Source of the DNA: a virus
Virus genome (UHGV): UHGV-1789659
Length of the DNA: 47,750 nt
Strand: one strand, 5' to 3'
The notes under the pieces are model-generated. The model ran no database searches, was not told the origin of the DNA, and was given only the letters and a program-made list of their open reading frames with translations. Below, one piece after another: positions 28,286-35,787 of the stretch (position 1 is the stretch's first letter; every line of letters begins with the position of its first letter). Made by a program: the position numbers and the translations under genes.

Positions 28286-31200
28286 ATGTGGTACAGGGAA
28301 GGTACTATCACATTTACACAGGGTAGCAATACTCTGGTTGGTGTTGGAACAGCCTGGAACGTAACAGCTAATGGTGTGTTGCCGGGCATGATCGTCATTG
28401 GTCCCGACAATAAGCTGTATGAGATCAAGCGCGTAACAAGCGATACGAATATTGTTCTCTCAGAACCTTATACCGGCGAAACTCAGTCTGAAGTTCCGTG
28501 CCGAATCATTACGACCTATGAAGGCGACTTAACACAGTTTAGCGCGCGCTTTACTGCGCTAATGTCGCGTATGTCGGCTGATTCCAAGTCCATGCGCAGT
28601 TGGTTGACTGCTCTGGATGAGGTGACAATCGAGCGTGAAGACGGTACAGAAGTGACCGTTAAGCCGCTAATGCAGATCGTCAACGAGCACAACGAAAACG
28701 TTGAGTGGTATAAAAATAACACCGACGCGATAGACGCTGCTGGCGACAAAGCTCGTGAGGCGGCGGCCAGTGCTGCCGCAGCAGCAGAAAGCGCCAATAC
28801 CGCTGGAGAAAAAGCCTCTCAAGCGTCTCAAAGTGCATCCGCTGCGGCTTCCTCACAAAGTGCTGCAAGTGCGAGTGCAACTGCTGCGAAAAAATCTGAA
28901 ACGAACGCAGAAGCCGCAAAAGAAGCGGCAGCAGAATCAGCGTCTGTAGCATCGACCAAAGCATCGGAGGCTGCAACATCTGCGTCCAGTGCCTCTGCAT
29001 CTAAGGATGCAGCCAAAGCATCAGAGACTAACGCTTCATCGAGTGCAAACGCGGCGGCATCATCGGCAACAGAAGCTGCAAATTCGTCTAAGGCAGCAAA
29101 AACGTCAGAGACAAACGCAAAAGCATCTGAAAAGGCAGCCGAACAGAGTGCATCGTCTGCAAACAGTTCGAAATCTGCGGCAGAAGCGTCAGCCAGCGCA
29201 GCCTCAGCAAGTGCGGATAGTGCTTCATCGAGTGCAACTGCGGCAGGAAGAGCTGCGGAAAGCGCGTCTTCATCCGCGACAACAGCTACCACAAAAGCGA
29301 CAGAGGCGACGAGTCAGGCTACAGCTGCTAAAAATTCAGCATCGGCAGCAAAAACCTCTGAAACAAATGCAAAGGCCTCAGAAGACAATGCTGCTTCCTC
29401 TAAGGCGGCAGCTGCTGAATCTGCAAGTTCTGCGTCTGCATCAGCCACCTCGGCATCCGCTTCAAAAGATGAGGCGACCAAGCAGGCATCAGCAGCGAAG
29501 GGTAGTGCTTCAACGGCATCCACAAAGGCAACAGAGGCGGCAGGCAGTGCGACGGCTGCATCTCAGAGCAAAACTGCTGCCGAATCTGCTGCGACTCGTG
29601 CAGAAGCTGCTGCTGATCGTGCTGAAGAGATTGCCGGTGCAGTTGCGATGGAAGACGCAAGCCTTACAACTAAAGGTGTTGTGAAACTTAGTAGTGCGAC
29701 AGATAGCACCAGTGAATCACTGGCTGCAACTCCAAAGGCAGTTAAAGCTGCGAATGACAATGCGAATAGCCGATTGGCGAAGAACCAGAATGGTGCTGAT
29801 ATACCAGGTAAGGATACCTTCACGAAAAATATTGGCGCTGGTCGAGCATTTGGAGGCTCTGTAAGCACAACAGCAGGAAACTGGACTACGGCACAGTTTG
29901 TCGAATGGTTGGACTCTCAAGGGGCCTTTAATCATCCGTACTGGATGTGTAAAGGCTCATGGTCGTATGGCAACAACAAAATCATTACTGATACTGGTTG
30001 TGGCGATATTCATCTTGCCGGGGCAGTAATTGAGGTAATGGGGATAAAGTCCGCAATGACGATCCGCGTTACCACACCAACAACATCTAGCGGTGGTGGT
30101 ACTGCTAACGCTCAATTTACTTATATTAACCACGGGACAGATTATTCTCCAGGCTGGCGACGAGACTACAATACAAAATACAAACCTACGCCATCGGATA
30201 TAGGTGCATTATCAACATCAGGAGGGACGGTTTCAGGTCCGTTGTCTGTTACTGGTGGGTTAACTGGTTCATTGAATGGCAATGCGAGTACCGCCACGAA
30301 ATTGCAGACTGCAAGAACTATCGGCGGCGTGGCCTTCGATGGATCTGCGAACATAAATTTGCCTGGTGTAAACACGGCAGGTAATCAGAGCACCACTGGT
30401 AATGCCGCAACCGCTACAAAACTTCAAACGGCAAGAACGATTGGTGGCGTTTCATTTAACGGAACTGCCAACATCGACTTGCCCGGAGTTAACAAAGCTG
30501 GCAACCAAAGCACCACAGGTAATGCTGCTACAGCTACTAAATTGCAGACAGCAAGAACCATCGGTGGTGTTAGCTTCGATGGCACTGCGAATATTAATTT
30601 GCCTGGTGTTAATGCTGCCGGTAATCAGAACACTACCGGTAACGCGGCTACAGCGACCAAGTTGCAAACTGCGAGAACTATTAACGGGGTGTCGTTTAAC
30701 GGCTCTGCGAATATTTCGATACCAACAATTACGTCCAGAGGACGCGTTACTGCGCTCACAGGCACAACGCAAGGCGCTACTACTGGATTGCAGATGTACG
30801 AGGCATATAACAACGGCTATCCTTCGACTTACGGGAATGTGCTTCATCTTAAGGGGGCAACAGCCGTTGGTGAAGGCGAGTTGTTCATAGGTTGGAGCGG
30901 TACAAGTGGCGCTCATGCACCTGTACATGTACGTTCGCGACGAGATACTGATACAGCCAGTTGGTCAGAGTGGGCGCAAGTTTATACGTCCAAAGACTCA
31001 ATTCCAGGTGTCAATGCCACCGGTAATCAGAACACTACTGGCAATGCAGCATCAGCAACGAAGTTGCAAACTGCCAGAACAATTGGAGGTGTATCGTTTA
31101 ATGGTACCGCCAATATTAACTTGCCGGGCGTCAATATAGCGGGTAATCAGAATACGACTGGTAACGCTGCTTCAGCCACGAAGTTACAAACGGCTCGTAC

Positions 31201-31813
31201 TATTGGTGGTGTTAGTTTTAACGGTACAGCCAATATTAACTTACCTGGTGTGAATACGACCGGTAATCAGAACACTACTGGTAATGCTGCAACCGCCACA
31301 AAATTGCAGACAGCAAGGAAAATTGCTGGTGTGGCGTTTGATGGCTCTGCCGATATAACTTTGACTGCGGCTAACCTTAATGCTTATACGAAAACAGAGG
31401 TAACAAACCTTCTCAGTTCCTATGTGAAGAGTAGTTCTCTTCCAAGCATGACTGTGCGAACTTCCTCTGTTTCTGGTGGGGATATGGGCATGAGTTTGTC
31501 CACATTCATTAGCCACCTTAAATCAAATGGGGCATTTAGCAAAAGTTATTGGATTGGCTTTGGCGATGCTATGGGATTCAATGCTGGCAGTATCAACAAT
31601 ATAACGGGATTTGGTGCTGTAGAATTAGCAGAATCCATAATCGAAGTTTTTAATCTACCGAATGGTGATTATACAATTCGTTTAACGACGTCACACAAAG
31701 CTGACTACGGTGGGATTACAAACGCAATCCTCGTTTATCACTACCGCAGTAATAGAAACCCGACAGGTCAATGGCTTAAATTTGCCGGTACTCTTGGGGC
31801 TACAAACAACTGA
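28286..31813 (+). CDS. side tail fibre protein (Stf-like) with Ala/Ser-rich region and tail-fibre repeats
   Basis: AAKTSETNAKAS-type low-complexity region as in lambda Stf (recalled); eight copies of a roughly 40-aa repeat NQ.TTGNAATATKLQTARTIGGV.F.G.ANI.LPGVN. Confidence 0.8.
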   Translation: MWYREGTITFTQGSNTLVGVGTAWNVTANGVLPGMIVIGPDNKLYEIKRVTSDTNIVLSEPYTGETQSEVPCRIITTYEGDLTQFSARFTALMSRMSADSKSMRSWLTALDEVTIEREDGTEVTVKPLMQIVNEHNENVEWYKNNTDAIDAAGDKAREAAASAAAAAESANTAGEKASQASQSASAAASSQSAASASATAAKKSETNAEAAKEAAAESASVASTKASEAATSASSASASKDAAKASETNASSSANAAASSATEAANSSKAAKTSETNAKASEKAAEQSASSANSSKSAAEASASAASASADSASSSATAAGRAAESASSSATTATTKATEATSQATAAKNSASAAKTSETNAKASEDNAASSKAAAAESASSASASATSASASKDEATKQASAAKGSASTASTKATEAAGSATAASQSKTAAESAATRAEAAADRAEEIAGAVAMEDASLTTKGVVKLSSATDSTSESLAATPKAVKAANDNANSRLAKNQNGADIPGKDTFTKNIGAGRAFGGSVSTTAGNWTTAQFVEWLDSQGAFNHPYWMCKGSWSYGNNKIITDTGCGDIHLAGAVIEVMGIKSAMTIRVTTPTTSSGGGTANAQFTYINHGTDYSPGWRRDYNTKYKPTPSDIGALSTSGGTVSGPLSVTGGLTGSLNGNASTATKLQTARTIGGVAFDGSANINLPGVNTAGNQSTTGNAATATKLQTARTIGGVSFNGTANIDLPGVNKAGNQSTTGNAATATKLQTARTIGGVSFDGTANINLPGVNAAGNQNTTGNAATATKLQTARTINGVSFNGSANISIPTITSRGRVTALTGTTQGATTGLQMYEAYNNGYPSTYGNVLHLKGATAVGEGELFIGWSGTSGAHAPVHVRSRRDTDTASWSEWAQVYTSKDSIPGVNATGNQNTTGNAASATKLQTARTIGGVSFNGTANINLPGVNIAGNQNTTGNAASATKLQTARTIGGVSFNGTANINLPGVNTTGNQNTTGNAATATKLQTARKIAGVAFDGSADITLTAANLNAYTKTEVTNLLSSYVKSSSLPSMTVRTSSVSGGDMGMSLSTFISHLKSNGAFSKSYWIGFGDAMGFNAGSINNITGFGAVELAESIIEVFNLPNGDYTIRLTTSHKADYGGITNAILVYHYRSNRNPTGQWLKFAGTLGATNN

Positions 31814-31933
31814 TTTAGGGATTATTTATATGGCTGTGTGGTTTAAAAATGCGATCTCACAGCCGCAATCATAGGGATATATTTGTGAGTTACCTGATAC
31901 GAATATGAACAGCCGTTAAACGGTATATGTGTT

Positions 31934-31954
31934 GATAGGTAAGTGCATACCTAT
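31934..31954 (+). promoter_or_regulatory. GATAGGTAAGTGCATACCTAT conserved motif
   Basis: GATAAGTA-family imperfect palindrome upstream of the lysis cassette. Confidence 0.4.
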
Positions 31955-32016
31955 AATTGAAAGGAGAAGTGTGATATAAATCCGCCATCCCGATTTGACT
32001 TTTCACGGAGGAAAAC

Positions 32017-32340
32017 ATGTCGAACGAGATGGCGGGCGTTACAACAGAGCAAGTTGAGCGTATTGCCGCGATCGTTGCTCGGGAGGTTGTTGGCAAATTA
32101 GGTAAAGAGCTACGTGAAGAAATTGGCCAGGAGGTCAATGATCAGCTGAAAACCTACTTTGGTGATATGACCCCGGCGCAACATAGTATTCAACACTCTA
32201 ATTTGGACAAACTCCTTAATCGGTTAGATTCCATCTCCAGTGGGTTCTTTGGCGGCATTGTTTCTAAAATAACGTCGTTCATTATTACTGCACTGCTTTT
32301 GGGATTAGCCGCGTATGGCGTAAAAAATGGACTGCAATAA
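32017..32340 (+). CDS. putative holin-like membrane protein (single C-terminal TM helix)
   Basis: 107-aa ORF with strong RBS (GGAGGAAAAC) directly upstream of the lysis genes; C-terminal hydrophobic helix ITSFIITALLLGLAAYGV. Confidence 0.35.
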   Translation: MSNEMAGVTTEQVERIAAIVAREVVGKLGKELREEIGQEVNDQLKTYFGDMTPAQHSIQHSNLDKLLNRLDSISSGFFGGIVSKITSFIITALLLGLAAYGVKNGLQ

Positions 32341-32353
32341 CAGGAGATCAAGG

Positions 32354-33046
32354 ATGAAGACTCCGAGAGGCATTCGTAATAATAACCCCGGTAATCTTGA
32401 TAAAGGATCACCGTGGCAAGGTCTGGTTGCGAATCCAGACGAACCGCGCTTTTGCACGTTTAAAGACCCTGTTTGGGGGATTCGTGCGCTGGCGGTGACT
32501 CTAATTACCTACCACGACAAACGTCGCGCAAAAGACGGCTCAAGTATCGATACCATTCGTGAAGTTATTGAACGTTGGGCACCGCCGAATGAAAACAACA
32601 CTGACGCCTACATTAATGAGGTGTCTAAAGCCGTTGGTGTAACCGCAGACATGATCATCGATCTGCATGATTACGACATCCTTAGACCTTTGGTTGAGGC
32701 AATCATTCGCCACGAGAATGGTCGAGGTCCACTAAAAACGCTGAACACCTGGTATGCGGCAGAAGTTATTGAGGAAGGTCTGCGTCGAGCTGGCGTCGTT
32801 AAGCCGGTGAAAACCGTGAAGGCTGTTCCTGTAACTAAAGAAACCGCAGGCGCAACTGTCACAGCAGGTATTGGTCTGGCGCAGCTTGCCGATGTTATGC
32901 CGCAGGTTTCCGCTGCTATGGATAAAGCACAAGGTCATATCTCTAGCGGGGATACAGTACGCATCATCTTCGGTATTGCCACTATTGTTGTGGCAGGATT
33001 CATTGCCTGGTCGCAGGTAAGAAAACACCAGAAAGGGATGGTCTAA
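32354..33046 (+). CDS. putative endolysin / cell-wall-active protein with C-terminal TM anchor (function uncertain)
   Basis: 230 aa from ATG 32354 (RBS CAGGAG); position between holin-like and spanin genes; conserved-looking GIRNNNPGNL box; C-terminal hydrophobic helix. No catalytic motif recognised by eye. Confidence 0.35.
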   Translation: MKTPRGIRNNNPGNLDKGSPWQGLVANPDEPRFCTFKDPVWGIRALAVTLITYHDKRRAKDGSSIDTIREVIERWAPPNENNTDAYINEVSKAVGVTADMIIDLHDYDILRPLVEAIIRHENGRGPLKTLNTWYAAEVIEEGLRRAGVVKPVKTVKAVPVTKETAGATVTAGIGLAQLADVMPQVSAAMDKAQGHISSGDTVRIIFGIATIVVAGFIAWSQVRKHQKGMV

Positions 33047-33261
33047 TATGCTAGGCAGCCTGATGATAAAGCTAAAAGTTGCTTTATTCATTGCCTGGTC
33101 GCAGGTAAGAAAACACCAGAAAGGGATGGTCTAATATGCTAGGCAGCCTGATGATAAAGCTAAAAGTTGCTTTATTCATTGCCTGGTCGCAGGTAAGAAA
33201 ACACCAGAAAGGGATGGTCTAATATGCTAGGCAGCCTGATGACAAAGCTAAAAGTTGCTTT
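32998..33261. repeat. 88-bp tandem repeat, three copies (two identical, third slightly diverged) across the endolysin/spanin junction
   Basis: Unit ATTCATTGCCTGGTCGCAGGTAAGAAAACACCAGAAAGGGATGGTCTAATATGCTAGGCAGCCTGATGATAAAGCTAAAAGTTGCTTT repeats at 32998, 33086 and 33174. Confidence 0.9.
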
Positions 33262-33475
33262 GATTACGCTGGCTGCCGTTCTTTTCGTTCTGGTCGGCGC
33301 TTACACGATGGGTGGGAATGCAGCACGACGAGCAATGGAAGAGAAGGCAAAACAGGAAGACAGAAAACGACTTCAAAACACAGTGGAAGTGGTGAATGAG
33401 ACGAGCAATAAAATACGTCAGAAAGATGCTTCTGCCGTTCATCGTGAGTTGTATGATAAGTGGGTGCGTCATTAA
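33224..33475 (+). CDS. i-spanin (Rz-like)
   Basis: N-terminal TM helix (ALITLAAVLFVLVGAYTMGG) followed by a charged segment; an embedded lipoprotein ORF overlaps the 3-prime end. Confidence 0.65.
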   Translation: MLGSLMTKLKVALITLAAVLFVLVGAYTMGGNAARRAMEEKAKQEDRKRLQNTVEVVNETSNKIRQKDASAVHRELYDKWVRH

Positions 33476-33611
33476 ACCACAAACCGCCAGCGTATTGTTC
33501 TGCGATGGAGCTGAGCCTATCTATATCAGCAATAATGATGTGATGACCGAAGAAACCGAACGCCAAATCCTTTTTCACAATACGATGGGAGAGAGAGTTT
33601 GCGGTTGGTGA
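33426..33611 (+). CDS. o-spanin (Rz1-like lipoprotein), overlapping the i-spanin in another frame
   Basis: Signal peptide with lipobox MLLPFIVSCMISG-C; in-frame ATG at 33426 inside the ORF-track ORF 33396..33611. Confidence 0.6.
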   Translation: MLLPFIVSCMISGCVIKPQTASVLFCDGAEPIYISNNDVMTEETERQILFHNTMGERVCGW

Positions 33612-33619
33612 TGCGAAGT

Positions 33620-33637
33620 TCCCCTCACTTGAGGGGA
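33620..33637. terminator. hairpin between convergent spanin and toxin genes
   Basis: CCCCTC-ACTT-GAGGGG stem-loop; flanking T/A runs are weak. Confidence 0.4.
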
Positions 33638-33642
33638 GTACA

Positions 33643-34164
33643 TTATTCTTCGAACAATTTTTCGATAGATTTTGTAGGATAGAACAAAGAACGCTCGTTG
33701 TTACCAACCAGCTGGATAAAGCCTAAACTTTTATAAAACGCCTTGGCTTTGTCATTTAACGCCTCAACGAAAAGTCCATGAATGCCTACAGCAAGAGATG
33801 CATTGTACACAACCCGCATTGCATGTGTTACAAGCATTGAGCCAAATCCTTGACCTTGAAGGGACTTGTCCAAAGCCAGCCTACCCAAAGTAACACTTGG
33901 AACATTCCGATAAGGAACCTTCTTTTGCTGGCTTCTTGAAGGTAAGGACTCCTTTTCAAAGCAGCTGCCTGACAAAGTGTAATACCCTAACACTTTTGGT
34001 CTGTCTTCTTTAGTGCAAAGCACATAAGCGCGAAGAATTTTTCCCTCATGCTGCCTTTTTAAGTGGTTGGTTAAAAAGGCATTTAGTGATTCTTCACCGC
34101 AATCAAAACCATTCAAATCATAATCTTTCTCTCCAGAGAAAATTTCTATCTTTATATTATCCAC
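33643..34164 (-). CDS. GNAT-family acetyltransferase toxin (TacT/KacT/AtaT-type)
   Basis: GNAT motif A QGQGFGSMLV; about 170 aa; immediately downstream of a DUF1778-type antitoxin ORF on the same strand; GTG start. Confidence 0.75.
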   Translation of the reverse strand: MDNIKIEIFSGEKDYDLNGFDCGEESLNAFLTNHLKRQHEGKILRAYVLCTKEDRPKVLGYYTLSGSCFEKESLPSRSQQKKVPYRNVPSVTLGRLALDKSLQGQGFGSMLVTHAMRVVYNASLAVGIHGLFVEALNDKAKAFYKSLGFIQLVGNNERSLFYPTKSIEKLFEE

Positions 34165-34171
34165 GAGTAAA

Positions 34172-34441
34172 CTACTCCATGCTTTTCAGACGATCAGCAG
34201 CTCGTTTCAGCTTGTCGTTCGGTGCCGGAGGATTGCTTATAGCGTCCATAACCAGATTCCAGGATTCTTCATTCAGAACTAGTCTACGGTGTTGCTCTAT
34301 AACTTTCACGGCACGTTCAGATGCACTGCTAACCATAAACTGAGTAATGCTCTGGTTAGACATTGCGGCAGCTTCCTCGATGATGCTTTTATCGTCATCG
34401 GTTAATCTCAAATCGATGCGCTGCTTTTTTAGTGCTGACAT
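34172..34441 (-). CDS. DUF1778-type RHH antitoxin (TacA/KacA-like)
   Basis: Start set at MSALKKQRIDLRLTDDDKSI after an AGGAGG RBS (plus-strand CCTCCT at 34446-34451); the N-terminal RIDLRL plus helical region is typical of DUF1778 antitoxins paired with GNAT toxins. Confidence 0.7.
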   Translation of the reverse strand: MSALKKQRIDLRLTDDDKSIIEEAAAMSNQSITQFMVSSASERAVKVIEQHRRLVLNEESWNLVMDAISNPPAPNDKLKRAADRLKSME

Positions 34442-34710
34442 GTATTCCTCCTGATGGCCGTGATGTAGGAAGGCCATCAATCTCCTCTGTTCAAACTGAG
34501 TTTTCGACTCAAAAATTACTTTAAAAGGCTATAGCCCATTACGTGTGCATTATCAAATTGTGTACGGCATATCACCGTACTTGTAATATAGAGGTCATTG
34601 TTACTTTTTTCAACAGACAAATACAAGCTATGATTGCCAATTGTTAATCACAACCTACCATTTAACCTTTACACCGCAGCCGTAGGCATTTAGGCTATAT
34701 CACATATAAG

Positions 34711-34759: not shown

Positions 34760-35428
34760 ATGACCAAGATCTTTGTGGTTGGCGGCACAAAGGGCGGGCC
34801 TGGCAAATCCACCGTTGCCCAGCAAATTGCCGTTTGCCTGAAAGTCAAAAAGAAGAAGAAGGTTTATATCACTGATATAGATATTCAGCGCACGACAACA
34901 AGCTGGTGTGAAGACCGTCGGCAGAACGAAGACCTTGAGCTGATTCCTTTTGCATACGTTCAGGATGACATCATTAAGCACCTAAAATCGCTTCAGGGTA
35001 GAGCTGAGTTTGTCGTGGTAGATGCTGGTGGCTTTGACTCCGAAATTCAGCGACAAGCGATGCTGATGGCCGACGTTATCATTATCCCGCTGCGTCCTAA
35101 GCGTCGTGATTTGAAATCTCTGCGTGACATCGATCCTATTATCGACAATGTTCGTAATGTAAACAATAAAGTGAAGGTCCGCGCTGTCATGAACCAGTGC
35201 CCGGCTTTGCCATCACAAGTGTCTCGCATTCTGGCGGCTAAAGAGATTGTTGAGACGTTTGGCATCGAGTCTGCGCCAGTCAATCTATATAACCGCAACG
35301 TCTATGATGATGCGGAAGAGTCTGGTCGTTCTATCTTTGAAATGACCGGTAGCGAGCGCGACAAAAAGGCGGAAGCCGAGTTTGAAGAATTTGTAGATTA
35401 TCTGTTGAGTCTGGAGGAAGAAGAATAA
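34760..35428 (+). CDS. parA: ParA-family partition ATPase (small, type Ib-like)
   Basis: Deviant Walker A GGTKGGPGKST at the N-terminus; 222 aa; followed by a coupled small DNA-binding protein gene. Confidence 0.85.
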   Translation: MTKIFVVGGTKGGPGKSTVAQQIAVCLKVKKKKKVYITDIDIQRTTTSWCEDRRQNEDLELIPFAYVQDDIIKHLKSLQGRAEFVVVDAGGFDSEIQRQAMLMADVIIIPLRPKRRDLKSLRDIDPIIDNVRNVNNKVKVRAVMNQCPALPSQVSRILAAKEIVETFGIESAPVNLYNRNVYDDAEESGRSIFEMTGSERDKKAEAEFEEFVDYLLSLEEEE

Positions 35429-35787
35429 TGTCCATGAAAATGGGTGACCTAGCAAAGCGCAAAGAGCCTGATGCACCGGCTAAGAACACAACTCCTTTGC
35501 GCCAACCAGTCAGACCACAGGGACGCCCGACTCGTGGCAAAGAGAAAATTAAAAGCCGCACAATGTCACTGGAGGACGAATACTTCGAACTGCTGGAGAT
35601 GATGAAGTTCATCCCTCGCTTCGAGAAATTCACCCGCTCTGATGTGATTCGTGCTGCTATTTTCCATCTTGCGGAGAAGACACCGCAGGAAATCGAGGAC
35701 ATCGTGAAACTTAACGAGGCGATCACAGCTGCCGACGTTACGATGCGTACCGATGAAATTAAACGAGAGTTGATGAAGAAAGGTTGA
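35428..35787 (+). CDS. ParG-like RHH centromere-binding protein
   Basis: 119 aa; basic flexible N-terminus and C-terminal beta-alpha-alpha pattern (RTMSLEDEYFELLE...SDVIRAAIFHLAEK); TAATG coupling to parA. Confidence 0.6.
   Translation: MSMKMGDLAKRKEPDAPAKNTTPLRQPVRPQGRPTRGKEKIKSRTMSLEDEYFELLEMMKFIPRFEKFTRSDVIRAAIFHLAEKTPQEIEDIVKLNEAITAADVTMRTDEIKRELMKKG

Follow-up and report, generated by a model that had tools for sequence, protein, structure and literature searches.

The lysis cassette at positions 32017-33611 of the window (the whole stretch analysed, 47,750 nt of virus genome UHGV-1789659) is carried by an SSU5-like phage-plasmid; with high confidence we assign the endolysin encoded in it to the Enc34/M4Lys class and to the mechanism proposed below. 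The host element and Escherichia phage Cyrano are 97% identical. First comes a small membrane protein anchored at its C-terminus, then a protein of 230 aa, then overlapping i- and o-spanin genes (Table 1); this is the order of the original prediction (holin-like gene, 230-aa gene, overlapping spanins), and all of its elements were located. Within this translationally coupled cassette, downstream of a tail-fibre gene, the endolysin gene is flanked by the holin-like gene on one side and by the spanin genes on the other; by gene order and PHROG matches, its place directly upstream of overlapped two-component spanins is that seen in Enc34/M4Lys-type cassettes. Judged from its sequence, the 230-aa protein belongs to an unusual yet already described type of endolysin that degrades the cell wall; homology, fold, conservation of the active site and of the membrane module, and gene order were all computed here for this protein.

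Table 1. Features of the lysis cassette and its immediate surroundings, with positions in the window.
Feature	Coordinates	Strand	Basis or remarks
Holin-like tail-anchored membrane protein, 107 aa	32017..32340	+	ORF, GGAGG Shine-Dalgarno, phrog_5093 E=7e-69
Enc34/M4Lys-type endolysin, 230 aa	32354..33046	+	Shine-Dalgarno-supported start; PDB 7Q47, PHROG 873 and Chi gp38 homology
Catalytic domain, residues 1-150, PHA02564 family (CDD), lysozyme alpha-lobe-like	32354..32803	+	AF2, Foldseek, conservation
Proximal weakly hydrophobic amphipathic helix, residues ~165-190	32846..32923	+	KD19 ~1.0, 52% G/A/S/T, high hydrophobic moment
Distal TM helix, residues ~203-221	32960..33016	+	KD19 2.03; model helix 199-226; aligned with Chi gp38 TMD
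Tandem triplication	32998..33261	+	Period 88 nt, 3.0 copies; TRF score 521, 99% matches
Chimeric mini-ORF 1, 28 aa, MLGSLMIKLKVALFIAWSQVRKHQKGMV	33048..33134	+	i-spanin N-terminus joined to endolysin C-terminus; made by the repeat
Chimeric mini-ORF 2, 28 aa	33136..33222	+	Identical to mini-ORF 1
i-spanin (Rz-like), 83 aa	33224..33475	+	phrog_1026 Rz-like spanin 7.8e-25; N-terminal TM ~11-29, KD19 2.38
o-spanin (Rz1-like), 71-aa precursor	33396..33611	+	phrog_1275 Rz-like spanin 1.2e-24; signal peptide
Terminator-like hairpin	33618..33639	+	9-bp stem, then T-rich tail; ends the cassette and faces a convergent toxin gene

The endolysin and its catalytic domain

Called mechanically, the open reading frame of the endolysin runs from 32327 to 33046 and encodes 239 aa; an AGGAG Shine-Dalgarno sequence precedes the ATG at 32354, while the first ATG of the frame (32327) has none. 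Since the annotations of Cyrano and SSU5 also carry the shorter form, labelled Endolysin, we take 230 aa to be the correct length. Numbered on the 239-aa form, phmmer matched the crystallised catalytic domain of Enc34 (PDB 7Q47) to residues 10-160 (E=1.5e-54, 59% identity), and PHROG 873 'endolysin' matched residues 8-232, membrane module included (6e-89); the two matches back the assignment as endolysin that had been made by position. Chi gp38 is 59% identical over the full length with the TMD and basic tail aligned, PhiR41_1 is 100% identical, and full-length homologues labelled 'endolysin' or 'lysis protein A' occur in 182 phage records. Identity to the characterised enzymes of the Enc34 and M4Lys class is 55-59%, short of near-identity. 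Two clusters of 289-aa 'long' endolysins (P0001 and P0006), considered as a different architecture, turned out to be stop-codon-loss read-throughs into the Rz region.

The original prediction had recognised no signature motif in the protein, which was a fair statement: searched at E<=1, the catalytic part matched nothing in Pfam or NCBIfam, and at that threshold no profile of a standard endolysin family (GH24, GH19, GH23/SLT, GH25, GH108, amidase_2/3, M15, CHAP) was matched. Between an unusual membrane-tethered muralytic enzyme and a different lysis factor it had made no choice; it is the first that holds, the protein being a full-length homologue of Chi gp38 and of the M4Lys/Enc34 ORF39 class. 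The novelty that it implied is not borne out, because earlier papers already name the C-terminal anchor as characteristic of the class (PMC6498227; PMC7143992; PMC8943055), and the matches to 7Q47 and PHROG 873 essentially place the protein in a known family of anchored endolysins. The 230-aa endolysin is largely explained by published work and is not a new mechanism in itself.

Structure prediction, proposed earlier as a check, gave an AF2 model with pLDDT >85 for residues ~30-150, in which residues 39-145 are helical only, with no beta lobe. Foldseek returned 7Q47 as the top match of this model (TM(target) 0.77-0.82, E=2e-16, 59% identity), and no other meaningful match was found in the PDB. 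Three residues, E121 (in RHENG), W75 (in ERWAPP) and Y86 (in AY), show no variation in 40 homologues and line up with E131, W79 and Y95 of Enc34; Glu121, encoded by the GAG codon at 32714-32716, is the putative catalytic residue, and W75 and Y86 are putative substrate-positioning residues. The catalytic Glu of Enc34 was assigned by structural superposition, the cited portions of that account containing no mutagenesis, and the same portions describe the relation of the domain to GH73/GH23 as visible only structurally (PMC8943055). As for the GIRNNNPGNL box, noted originally as conserved-looking, six of its positions (G6, R8, N11, P12, G13 and N14) are invariant in the 40 homologues; the box as a whole is not. 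We propose that residues 1 to ~150 would act as a glycosidase cleaving peptidoglycan, in which Glu121 would serve as catalytic acid while Trp75 and Tyr86 position the glycan.

The same catalytic domain is found again in virion and ejection proteins, namely Gp29 (PDB 9vvp), PHROGs 7182, 2276 and 992, and the Kayfunavirus internal virion protein D. That the domain is shared with internal core/ejection proteins, tape measures and 'virion proteins', and that PHROG 873 has the category 'head and packaging', would suit a 230-aa protein that is primarily a virion-associated peptidoglycan hydrolase of the entry stage and not a lysis enzyme; we regard this as highly improbable, given the place of the gene in a coupled cassette, with the holin-like gene before it and the spanins after it, the small size of the protein with a membrane module specific to the lysis-cassette clade, and the fact that M4Lys lyses from within. 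It is also at odds with the annotation of Cyrano, in the first 100 kb of whose 108-kb genome no other endolysin is annotated; this check covered positions 1-100 kb of Cyrano and, in the window, the ORFs of the cassette.

The membrane module and its topology

The C-terminal ~70 residues of the endolysin comprise a PVTKE stretch, a weakly hydrophobic Gly/Ala/Thr-rich helix, a short polar loop, a TM helix, which is the C-terminal helix of the original prediction, and the basic tail RKHQKGMV. The PVTKE stretch (residues 159-163) is nearly invariant, P159, V160, T161, K162 and E163 being at least 90% conserved, and precedes the proximal helix; the AF2 model has helices at 162-170 and 176-191 in this part, with low pLDDT. 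Within the module A167, G174 and Q177 are invariant in the 40 homologues, and nine of its columns are invariant across 18 diverse sequences. No hydrophobic segment was found by KD19 in residues 1-160 (the N-terminus reads MKTPRGIRNNNPGN). A SAR endolysin of the N-terminal signal-anchor kind was considered and rejected, there being no weakly hydrophobic N-terminal domain before the catalytic domain.

A PHROG search with the module alone recovered its own family, phrog_873 (9e-11), and no similarity to holin families was detected in PHROGs or Pfam, the remaining matches being weak noise. Moreover, a profile search found neither stand-alone copies of the module nor fusions to other catalytic domains among the best 8,000 candidates, which were those scored; the 24 short matches that were checked are contig-end fragments or a frameshift-split gene, the latter in a Pasteurella prophage, where pieces of 157 aa and 77 aa make up a fused form of 234 aa. 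Modular shuffling of the membrane module finds no support in this search among the best 8,000 candidates.

The endolysin would accumulate tethered to the inner membrane. For the homologous Siskin endolysin the authors predict an N-in/C-in arrangement (PMC6498227), and for M4Lys an N-out topology was predicted (PMC7143992). We consider the N-in/C-in hairpin the most likely topology here, which would leave the catalytic domain cytoplasmic and the basic tail inside; access of the catalytic domain to the wall would then depend on the membrane module, once enough of the protein accumulates or the membrane is de-energised, the presumed triggers.

The basic tail favours C-in/N-out if a single helix spans the membrane, as the M4Lys authors also predict, and the catalytic domain could in that case be exported, held inactive by its anchor and freed on collapse of the membrane potential, brought about by the 107-aa protein in the role of a pinholin; a C-terminal SAR model of this kind has been proposed for LysAP (PMC8879335) and suggested for Enc34 in the part of its description cited here (PMC8943055). 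We think it unlikely for the present protein: according to that part of the Enc34 description, no known pathway moves an N-terminal domain of ~200 residues by means of a C-terminal signal (PMC8943055), lysis by M4Lys was not blocked by azide (PMC7143992), and the distal TM helix is strongly hydrophobic (KD 2.03), unlike SAR domains that exit the membrane.

The upstream protein, the spanins and a tandem repeat

The 107-aa protein has one hydrophobic segment, near its C-terminus (residues ~81-100, KD19 2.02), and its AF2 model (pLDDT 86) consists of helices 10-48 and 53-103, the second running into the C-terminal TM. It carries a conserved FGDMTPxQHxxQH motif; G49, H56 and H60 are invariant in 30 diverse members of phrog_5093, forming a G-x6-H-x3-H motif ahead of the C-terminal TM. 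In PHROGs the family is annotated as of function unknown, and neither the protein nor 29 relatives matched Pfam or NCBIfam. The holin-like protein noted originally is a small membrane protein encoded beside the endolysin; it matches no named holin family, and calling it a holin is positional only. Kinship with Chi gp37 or BSPM4 ORF_37 was rejected (BLASTP E=16, opposite TM placement), as was a dual-start motif, Met5 not being conserved.

Among GenBank phages, tblastn found phrog_5093 relatives only in SSU5-like records, and the gene contexts of distant members were taken from metagenome contigs. These distant members head lysis cassettes with other endolysins, an M15 peptidase (L008) or phrog_669 (L012 and L015). 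In L012 and L015 a separate 2-TM phrog_8226 'holin' stands between the phrog_5093 gene and the endolysin; in L011 an unassigned 2-TM protein takes the middle place, and in L008 the phrog_5093 gene directly precedes the M15 endolysin, with no 2-TM gene between. Because distant members often precede a separate 2-TM holin, the 107-aa protein may be a regulator and not a holin; we propose that it would set or modulate the timing of lysis, presumably in the role of a (pin)holin or of a regulator resembling an antiholin. Since this upstream partner is unrelated to those of Chi and BSPM4, lysis regulation may differ from theirs.

In M4Lys, lysis or toxicity requires the membrane domain but can do without the upstream gene and without Sec; expressed by itself the TMD is bacteriostatic, and co-expression of the upstream gene slightly delays lysis (PMC7143992). 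Holin-independent lysis in the homologues may be an over-expression artefact. These properties of M4Lys would be expected if the module were itself hole-forming, that is, if the protein were a natural endolysin-holin fusion and the 107-aa protein an antiholin or timing regulator instead of a holin. Such a fusion is possible, though we do not favour it. The separate 2-TM protein of L011, L012 and L015 has its counterpart here in a sole downstream 2-helix element fused to the endolysin, the nine invariant module columns exceed what a simple anchor needs, and the composition of the proximal helix, rich in G/A/S/T, is SAR/pinholin-like. Against it speak the lack of detectable similarity of the module to PHROGs or Pfam holin families, the lack of stand-alone modules or other catalytic fusions among the best 8,000 candidates, the arrangement in L008, and the finding that in M4Lys the catalytic domain with the proximal helix is harmless. 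Taken one step further, phrog_5093 would be an undescribed lysis-timing class spanning at least three unrelated endolysin types, and the SSU5-like endolysin a natural endolysin-holin fusion whose module replaces the 2-TM holin, with the tail-anchored protein regulating it as antiholin or co-holin; we put this forward as a rather doubtful extension.

In the reading that we prefer, with a hairpin-tethered endolysin, the overlapped i-/o-spanin pair would then fuse or disrupt the outer membrane. The two spanin genes, read in different frames, share 80 nt. In Cyrano and SSU5 the i-spanin gene carries the annotation Rz; the o-spanin has a basic n-region, a hydrophobic core and the lipobox I-S-G-C with Cys24. 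The SSU5 spanins have been catalogued, the o-spanin being grouped with those of Chi and Enc34 (Kongari 2018).

A triplication at the junction of the endolysin and Rz genes had been missed earlier. The repeat unit takes in 15 codons from the end of the endolysin, the TAATATG junction and 13 from the start of the i-spanin; all relatives have a single copy, as seen in an alignment with Cyrano and SSU5, and the gap of 177 nt between endolysin and i-spanin corresponds to two extra repeat copies. A 29-mer across the repeat junction occurs twice in the window and had no match in 5,426 E. coli genomes, PLSDB, IMG/VR or GTDB representatives. The first of the chimeric mini-ORFs produced by the repeat has the same upstream context as the i-spanin start, and no match to it was found in PHROGs.

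Distribution and comparison with known systems

Plasmids matching the cassette region were found in 215 of 5,426 complete E. coli genomes, and PLSDB had 268 of them. Clinical and animal Enterobacteriaceae commonly carry SSU5-like phage-plasmids, and in most of those plasmid records the endolysin goes by 'hypothetical protein' or 'membrane protein', since the domain has a model in neither Pfam nor NCBIfam; the tie to the Enc34/M4Lys class gives this gene a function. The class was previously thought to be confined to Chi-like phages, and the SSU5-like member extends it beyond that clade. Its second, unrelated upstream partner gene could help to explain how a C-terminally anchored catalytic domain reaches the wall.

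Among the systems compared, Gp29 of phage E1004 (PDB 9vvp) shares a homologous catalytic domain with the GIRNNNPGN box (E=6e-22); however, Gp29 and the Kayfunavirus internal virion protein D are large multi-domain structural proteins, encoded outside lysis cassettes and without the C-terminal module. The N-terminal SAR endolysins of P1 (Lyz) and phage 21 (R21), which are paired with pinholins, resemble the 230-aa protein as membrane-tethered muralytic enzymes. SAR endolysins and pinholins make lysis possible without a large-hole holin, through a Sec-mediated N-terminal signal anchor. In the 230-aa protein the anchor lies at the opposite end, and because it has no N-terminal hydrophobic segment the logic of Sec-mediated N-terminal export does not apply to it. 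LysAP of Acidovorax phage AP1 likewise combines a catalytic domain with a TM domain at the C-terminus and has a small one-TM holin adjacent; its TM domain is needed for localisation and lysis, it is reported to be Sec-dependent, and it has been called a 'C-terminal SAR endolysin' (PMC8879335). Its catalytic domain, in contrast, is by description of the GH24 T4-lysozyme type with an E/D/T triad, and M4Lys was not reported to be Sec-dependent.

Also compared were M4Lys of Salmonella phage BSPM4, Chi gp38 and the Siskin endolysin (Bai et al. 2020; O'Leary et al. 2019), which share the full architecture, TMD and basic tail included, and are 55-59% identical. M4Lys shows N-acetylglucosaminidase-type cleavage and lysis from within (PMC7143992), and by homology glucosaminidase-type activity and TMD-dependent lysis are expected to be shared by the 230-aa protein. 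The Chi partner gp37, of 112 aa and with an N-terminal TM, has no similarity to the 107-aa protein.

The class was described between 2019 and 2022 as an all-helical lysozyme-like domain with a C-terminal membrane anchor (PMC6498227; PMC7143992; PMC8943055, in the portions cited), and according to these sources the muralytic activity of the catalytic domain has been demonstrated for Enc34 and M4Lys (PMC8943055; PMC7143992). As far as the cited portions of its account go, ORF39 of Hafnia phage Enc34 (Cernooka et al. 2022, PMC8943055) is alike in PHA02564 family, with 59% identity, in predicted all-helical fold, in the Glu/Trp/Tyr residues, in the C-terminal two-helix membrane domain, in its place before overlapped spanins and in the o-spanin family, which is that of SSU5. 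The two differ in that the host here is an SSU5-like phage-plasmid of ~110 kb, whereas Enc34 is a Chi-like virulent siphovirus of ~60 kb, in small deletions in two loops of the 230-aa protein, and in the upstream partner, a phrog_5093 protein with a C-terminal TM here and an unrelated 'class IV' holin with an N-terminal TM in Enc34.

Lysis cassette and identity of the endolysin

The original prediction described a holin-like small membrane protein, a 230-aa protein and overlapping i-spanin and o-spanin genes, and all four were recovered in that order by ORFs, Shine-Dalgarno sequences and spanin PHROG matches; the spanin genes overlap by 80 nt and match Rz-like spanin PHROGs at about 1e-24. The length of 230 aa is the right one, because AGGAG precedes the second start, no Shine-Dalgarno sequence is found at the first ATG, and the annotations of Cyrano and SSU5 give the same form. 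That no catalytic signature had been recognised was a fair reading, since the catalytic part has no Pfam or NCBIfam match even at E<=1. The C-terminal anchor was also confirmed as a strongly hydrophobic helix (residues ~203-221) followed by RKHQKGMV; no hydrophobic segment was found at the N-terminus.

Features of the lysis cassette and its surroundings
Feature	Position	Strand	Remarks
Tail-fibre gene	28286-31813		1175 aa; long Ala/Ser/Thr-rich low-complexity stretch; many tandem ~33-aa GNAATATKLQTARTIGGVSFNGTANINLPGVN units; shorter than Cyrano homologue
Holin-like ORF (phrog_5093)	32017-32340	+	107 aa; strong Shine-Dalgarno; one hydrophobic segment near C-terminus
Endolysin ORF	32354-33046	+	230 aa from ATG at 32354, preceded by AGGAG; opens mechanically at 32327 (239 aa)
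Triplicated 88-nt unit	32998-33261		TRF: 3.0 copies, 99%
Two identical 28-aa chimeric ORFs	33048-33134, 33136-33222	+	MLGSLMIKLKVALFIAWSQVRKHQKGMV; made by the extra copies
i-spanin	33224-33475	+	N-terminal TM
o-spanin	33396-33611	+	lipobox ISGC
Terminator-like hairpin	33618-33639		common to lysis cassette and GNAT toxin side
Convergent GNAT (KacT-like) toxin with antitoxin, then ParA and a small partner gene	33643-34480 and 34760-35787	- and +	toxin pair directly after lysis cassette, ParA and partner gene behind it

A PDB sequence search with the endolysin returned the catalytic domain from the endolysin of Hafnia phage Enc34 (7Q47, E=1.5e-54) and an internal core protein of phage E1004 (9vvp, 6e-22), while the match to PHROG 873 ("endolysin", 6e-89) spans the whole protein including its C-terminal region. 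An AlphaFold model built from 40 homologues reached pLDDT >85 for residues ~30-150, and its only significant PDB structural match was again 7Q47 (TM 0.77-0.82, 59% identity). Glu131, Trp79 and Tyr95, assigned as the active site in the report on the Enc34 domain structure (Cernooka et al. 2022, PMC8943055), correspond here to E121 (RHENG), W75 (ERWAPP) and Y86, and none of the three varies in the alignment of 40 sequences. The conservation presumed for the GIRNNNPGNL box holds for six of its ten residues, which are invariant in the same alignment.

Chi gp38 is 59% identical from end to end, and its membrane helix and basic tail align with those found here. Using tblastn, full-length homologues annotated "endolysin" or "lysis protein A" were found in 182 phage records, from Chi-like Salmonella phages and from Serratia, Providencia, Proteus and Aeromonas phages; the catalytic domain alone occurs in about 600 more records, within virion, ejection or tape-measure proteins. 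Judged from its sequence, the 230-aa protein is thus a new member of an endolysin class that is already known and has been characterised by experiment. The original interpretation is supported in part: the unusual membrane-tethered muralytic enzyme it proposed is the correct reading, but the kind is established, the reports on Siskin, M4Lys and Enc34 having described the class. What the locus adds is a clade outside the Chi-like group, that of the SSU5-like phage-plasmids.

Two independent 289-aa versions of the endolysin, each a single-member cluster (P0001 and P0006), show 100% and 90% identity across the part in common; with the stop codon lost (TAA to TAT and TAA to TTA), translation would run into the i-spanin region, out of frame with that gene. 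Either sequencing errors or genuine loss of the stop could account for them.

Membrane module and the upstream phrog_5093 protein

Residues 156-230 are, by the alignment, far more conserved than a plain anchor would require: conservation reaches at least 90% at each of P159, V160, T161, K162 and E163, and A167, G174, Q177, A188, S198 and Q221 do not vary at all. Hydrophobicity is weak in the proximal segment (~165-190; KD ~1.0, 19-residue hydropathy), which is amphipathic and 52% Gly/Ala/Ser/Thr, and strong in the distal helix (KD 2.03). The resting state would most likely be the N-in/C-in hairpin predicted by the Siskin authors for the homologous endolysin of that phage; with the basic tail inside, the catalytic domain would be cytoplasmic and exotic export would not be needed. 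The module was not recognisable as any holin in PHROGs or Pfam. Among the top 8,000 candidates of a profile search it turned up neither by itself nor joined to a different catalytic domain, the short matches checked being fragments or a frameshift split. The latter lies in a Pasteurella multocida prophage (L016, 1531-2234), where the catalytic part (157 aa) and the membrane module (77 aa) are encoded by separate ORFs that overlap by 4 nt and are in different frames; a fused 234-aa form is present in other P. multocida genomes, and the split is probably a frameshift.

The sole match of the 107-aa protein upstream was phrog_5093 (function unknown), and a word-indexed search returned SSU5-like relatives only. 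Chi gp37, which has an N-terminal TM, was considered as a relative and is unrelated. A profile search of 1.8 billion representatives (E<1e-3) yielded 60 proteins of 100-140 aa sharing one plan: N-terminal helix, variable coiled segment, the motif FGDM(T/S)PxxHxxQHxR..L..D..S.NFWG with invariant G49, H56 and H60 (Gly and H-x3-H), and C-terminal TM. All 30 members tested matched phrog_5093 and none matched Pfam. In the predicted model two long helices span residues 10-48 and 53-103, and the latter enters the membrane.

Distant members sit at the head of lysis cassettes. In three loci (L008-L010) the gene for an M15-peptidase endolysin begins within that of the phrog_5093 protein; in two others (L012, L015) the latter precedes genes for a "holin" with two TMs (phrog_8226), an endolysin of phrog_669 and proteins resembling spanins, and in L011 genes for a 2-TM protein of 72 aa and a lipoprotein. 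This links the family to lysis, with endolysins of at least three types (M15, phrog_669 and Enc34-type). Since a separate 2-TM holin is frequently present, the 107-aa protein may be a co-holin, antiholin or timer and not the hole-former. The gene order of a handful of contigs, phrog_5093, 2-TM holin and endolysin, as against phrog_5093 and an endolysin with a two-helix module here, suggests a more speculative reading, to which we give limited credence: an endolysin-holin fusion whose module is itself hole-forming, with the phrog_5093 protein as antiholin or timing regulator. Part of the remaining value of the locus lies in this uncharacterised partner family.

Host element and the triplicated junction

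Over 31800-33800 the sequence shares 97% identity with Escherichia phage Cyrano, a 108-kb phage-plasmid of E. coli LF82, and 83% with Salmonella phage SSU5. The tail-fibre gene upstream and the GNAT toxin/antitoxin pair, ParA, helicase and primase downstream are consistent with an SSU5-like phage-plasmid. The cassette region matches plasmids in 215 of 5,426 complete E. coli genomes and 268 plasmids in PLSDB. Most records of complete E. coli plasmids list the endolysin and Rz as "hypothetical protein" or "membrane protein", and neither Pfam nor NCBIfam holds a model for the PHA02564/Enc34 catalytic domain, an annotation gap for a gene carried by hundreds of enterobacterial plasmids.

The endolysin stop and the i-spanin start are 177 nt apart, a gap taken up by two additional copies of the 88-nt unit, which consists of the final 15 codons of the endolysin, TAATATG and the opening 13 codons of the i-spanin; both genes are intact despite the triplication, and the chimeric ORFs carry the i-spanin's own translation-initiation context. 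Copies 1 and 2 have ATA, copy 3 and Cyrano ACA. Cyrano, SSU5 and all related records among the matches listed (~480 matching plasmids) have one copy of the unit, and the junction 29-mer was not found in E. coli genomes, PLSDB, IMG/VR or GTDB representatives. Either the triplication arose recently in this genome alone or it is an artefact of assembly. Should it be genuine, repeated rounds of termination and re-initiation might reduce expression of the spanins.

Relation to characterised endolysins

The 2019 Siskin genome note (PMC6498227) described an endolysin with two C-terminal TMDs and a predicted N-in/C-in topology and proposed a new endolysin class, alongside a "class IV" holin. For M4Lys, Bai et al. 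(2020, PMC7143992) reported that the catalytic domain degrades peptidoglycan with mainly N-acetylglucosaminidase-type products, and that the full-length protein alone lyses E. coli, azide not blocking it; lysis was abolished without the TMD or its last 13 residues, the TMD by itself was bacteriostatic, and the upstream ORF_37 was dispensable, delaying lysis slightly. Cernooka et al. related the Enc34 domain structurally to GH73/GH23 and measured its activity on permeabilised cells of E. coli, Pseudomonas and Hafnia; by their account the architecture "appears to be limited" to Chivirus and its relatives, and no pathway is known for export of an N-terminal domain via a C-terminal signal. The export or activation mechanism of the class is a further source of the remaining value of the locus. 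LysAP of Acidovorax phage AP1 (PMC8879335), named a "C-terminal SAR endolysin", is a separate precedent for a catalytic domain joined to a C-terminal TMD, its domain being GH24.
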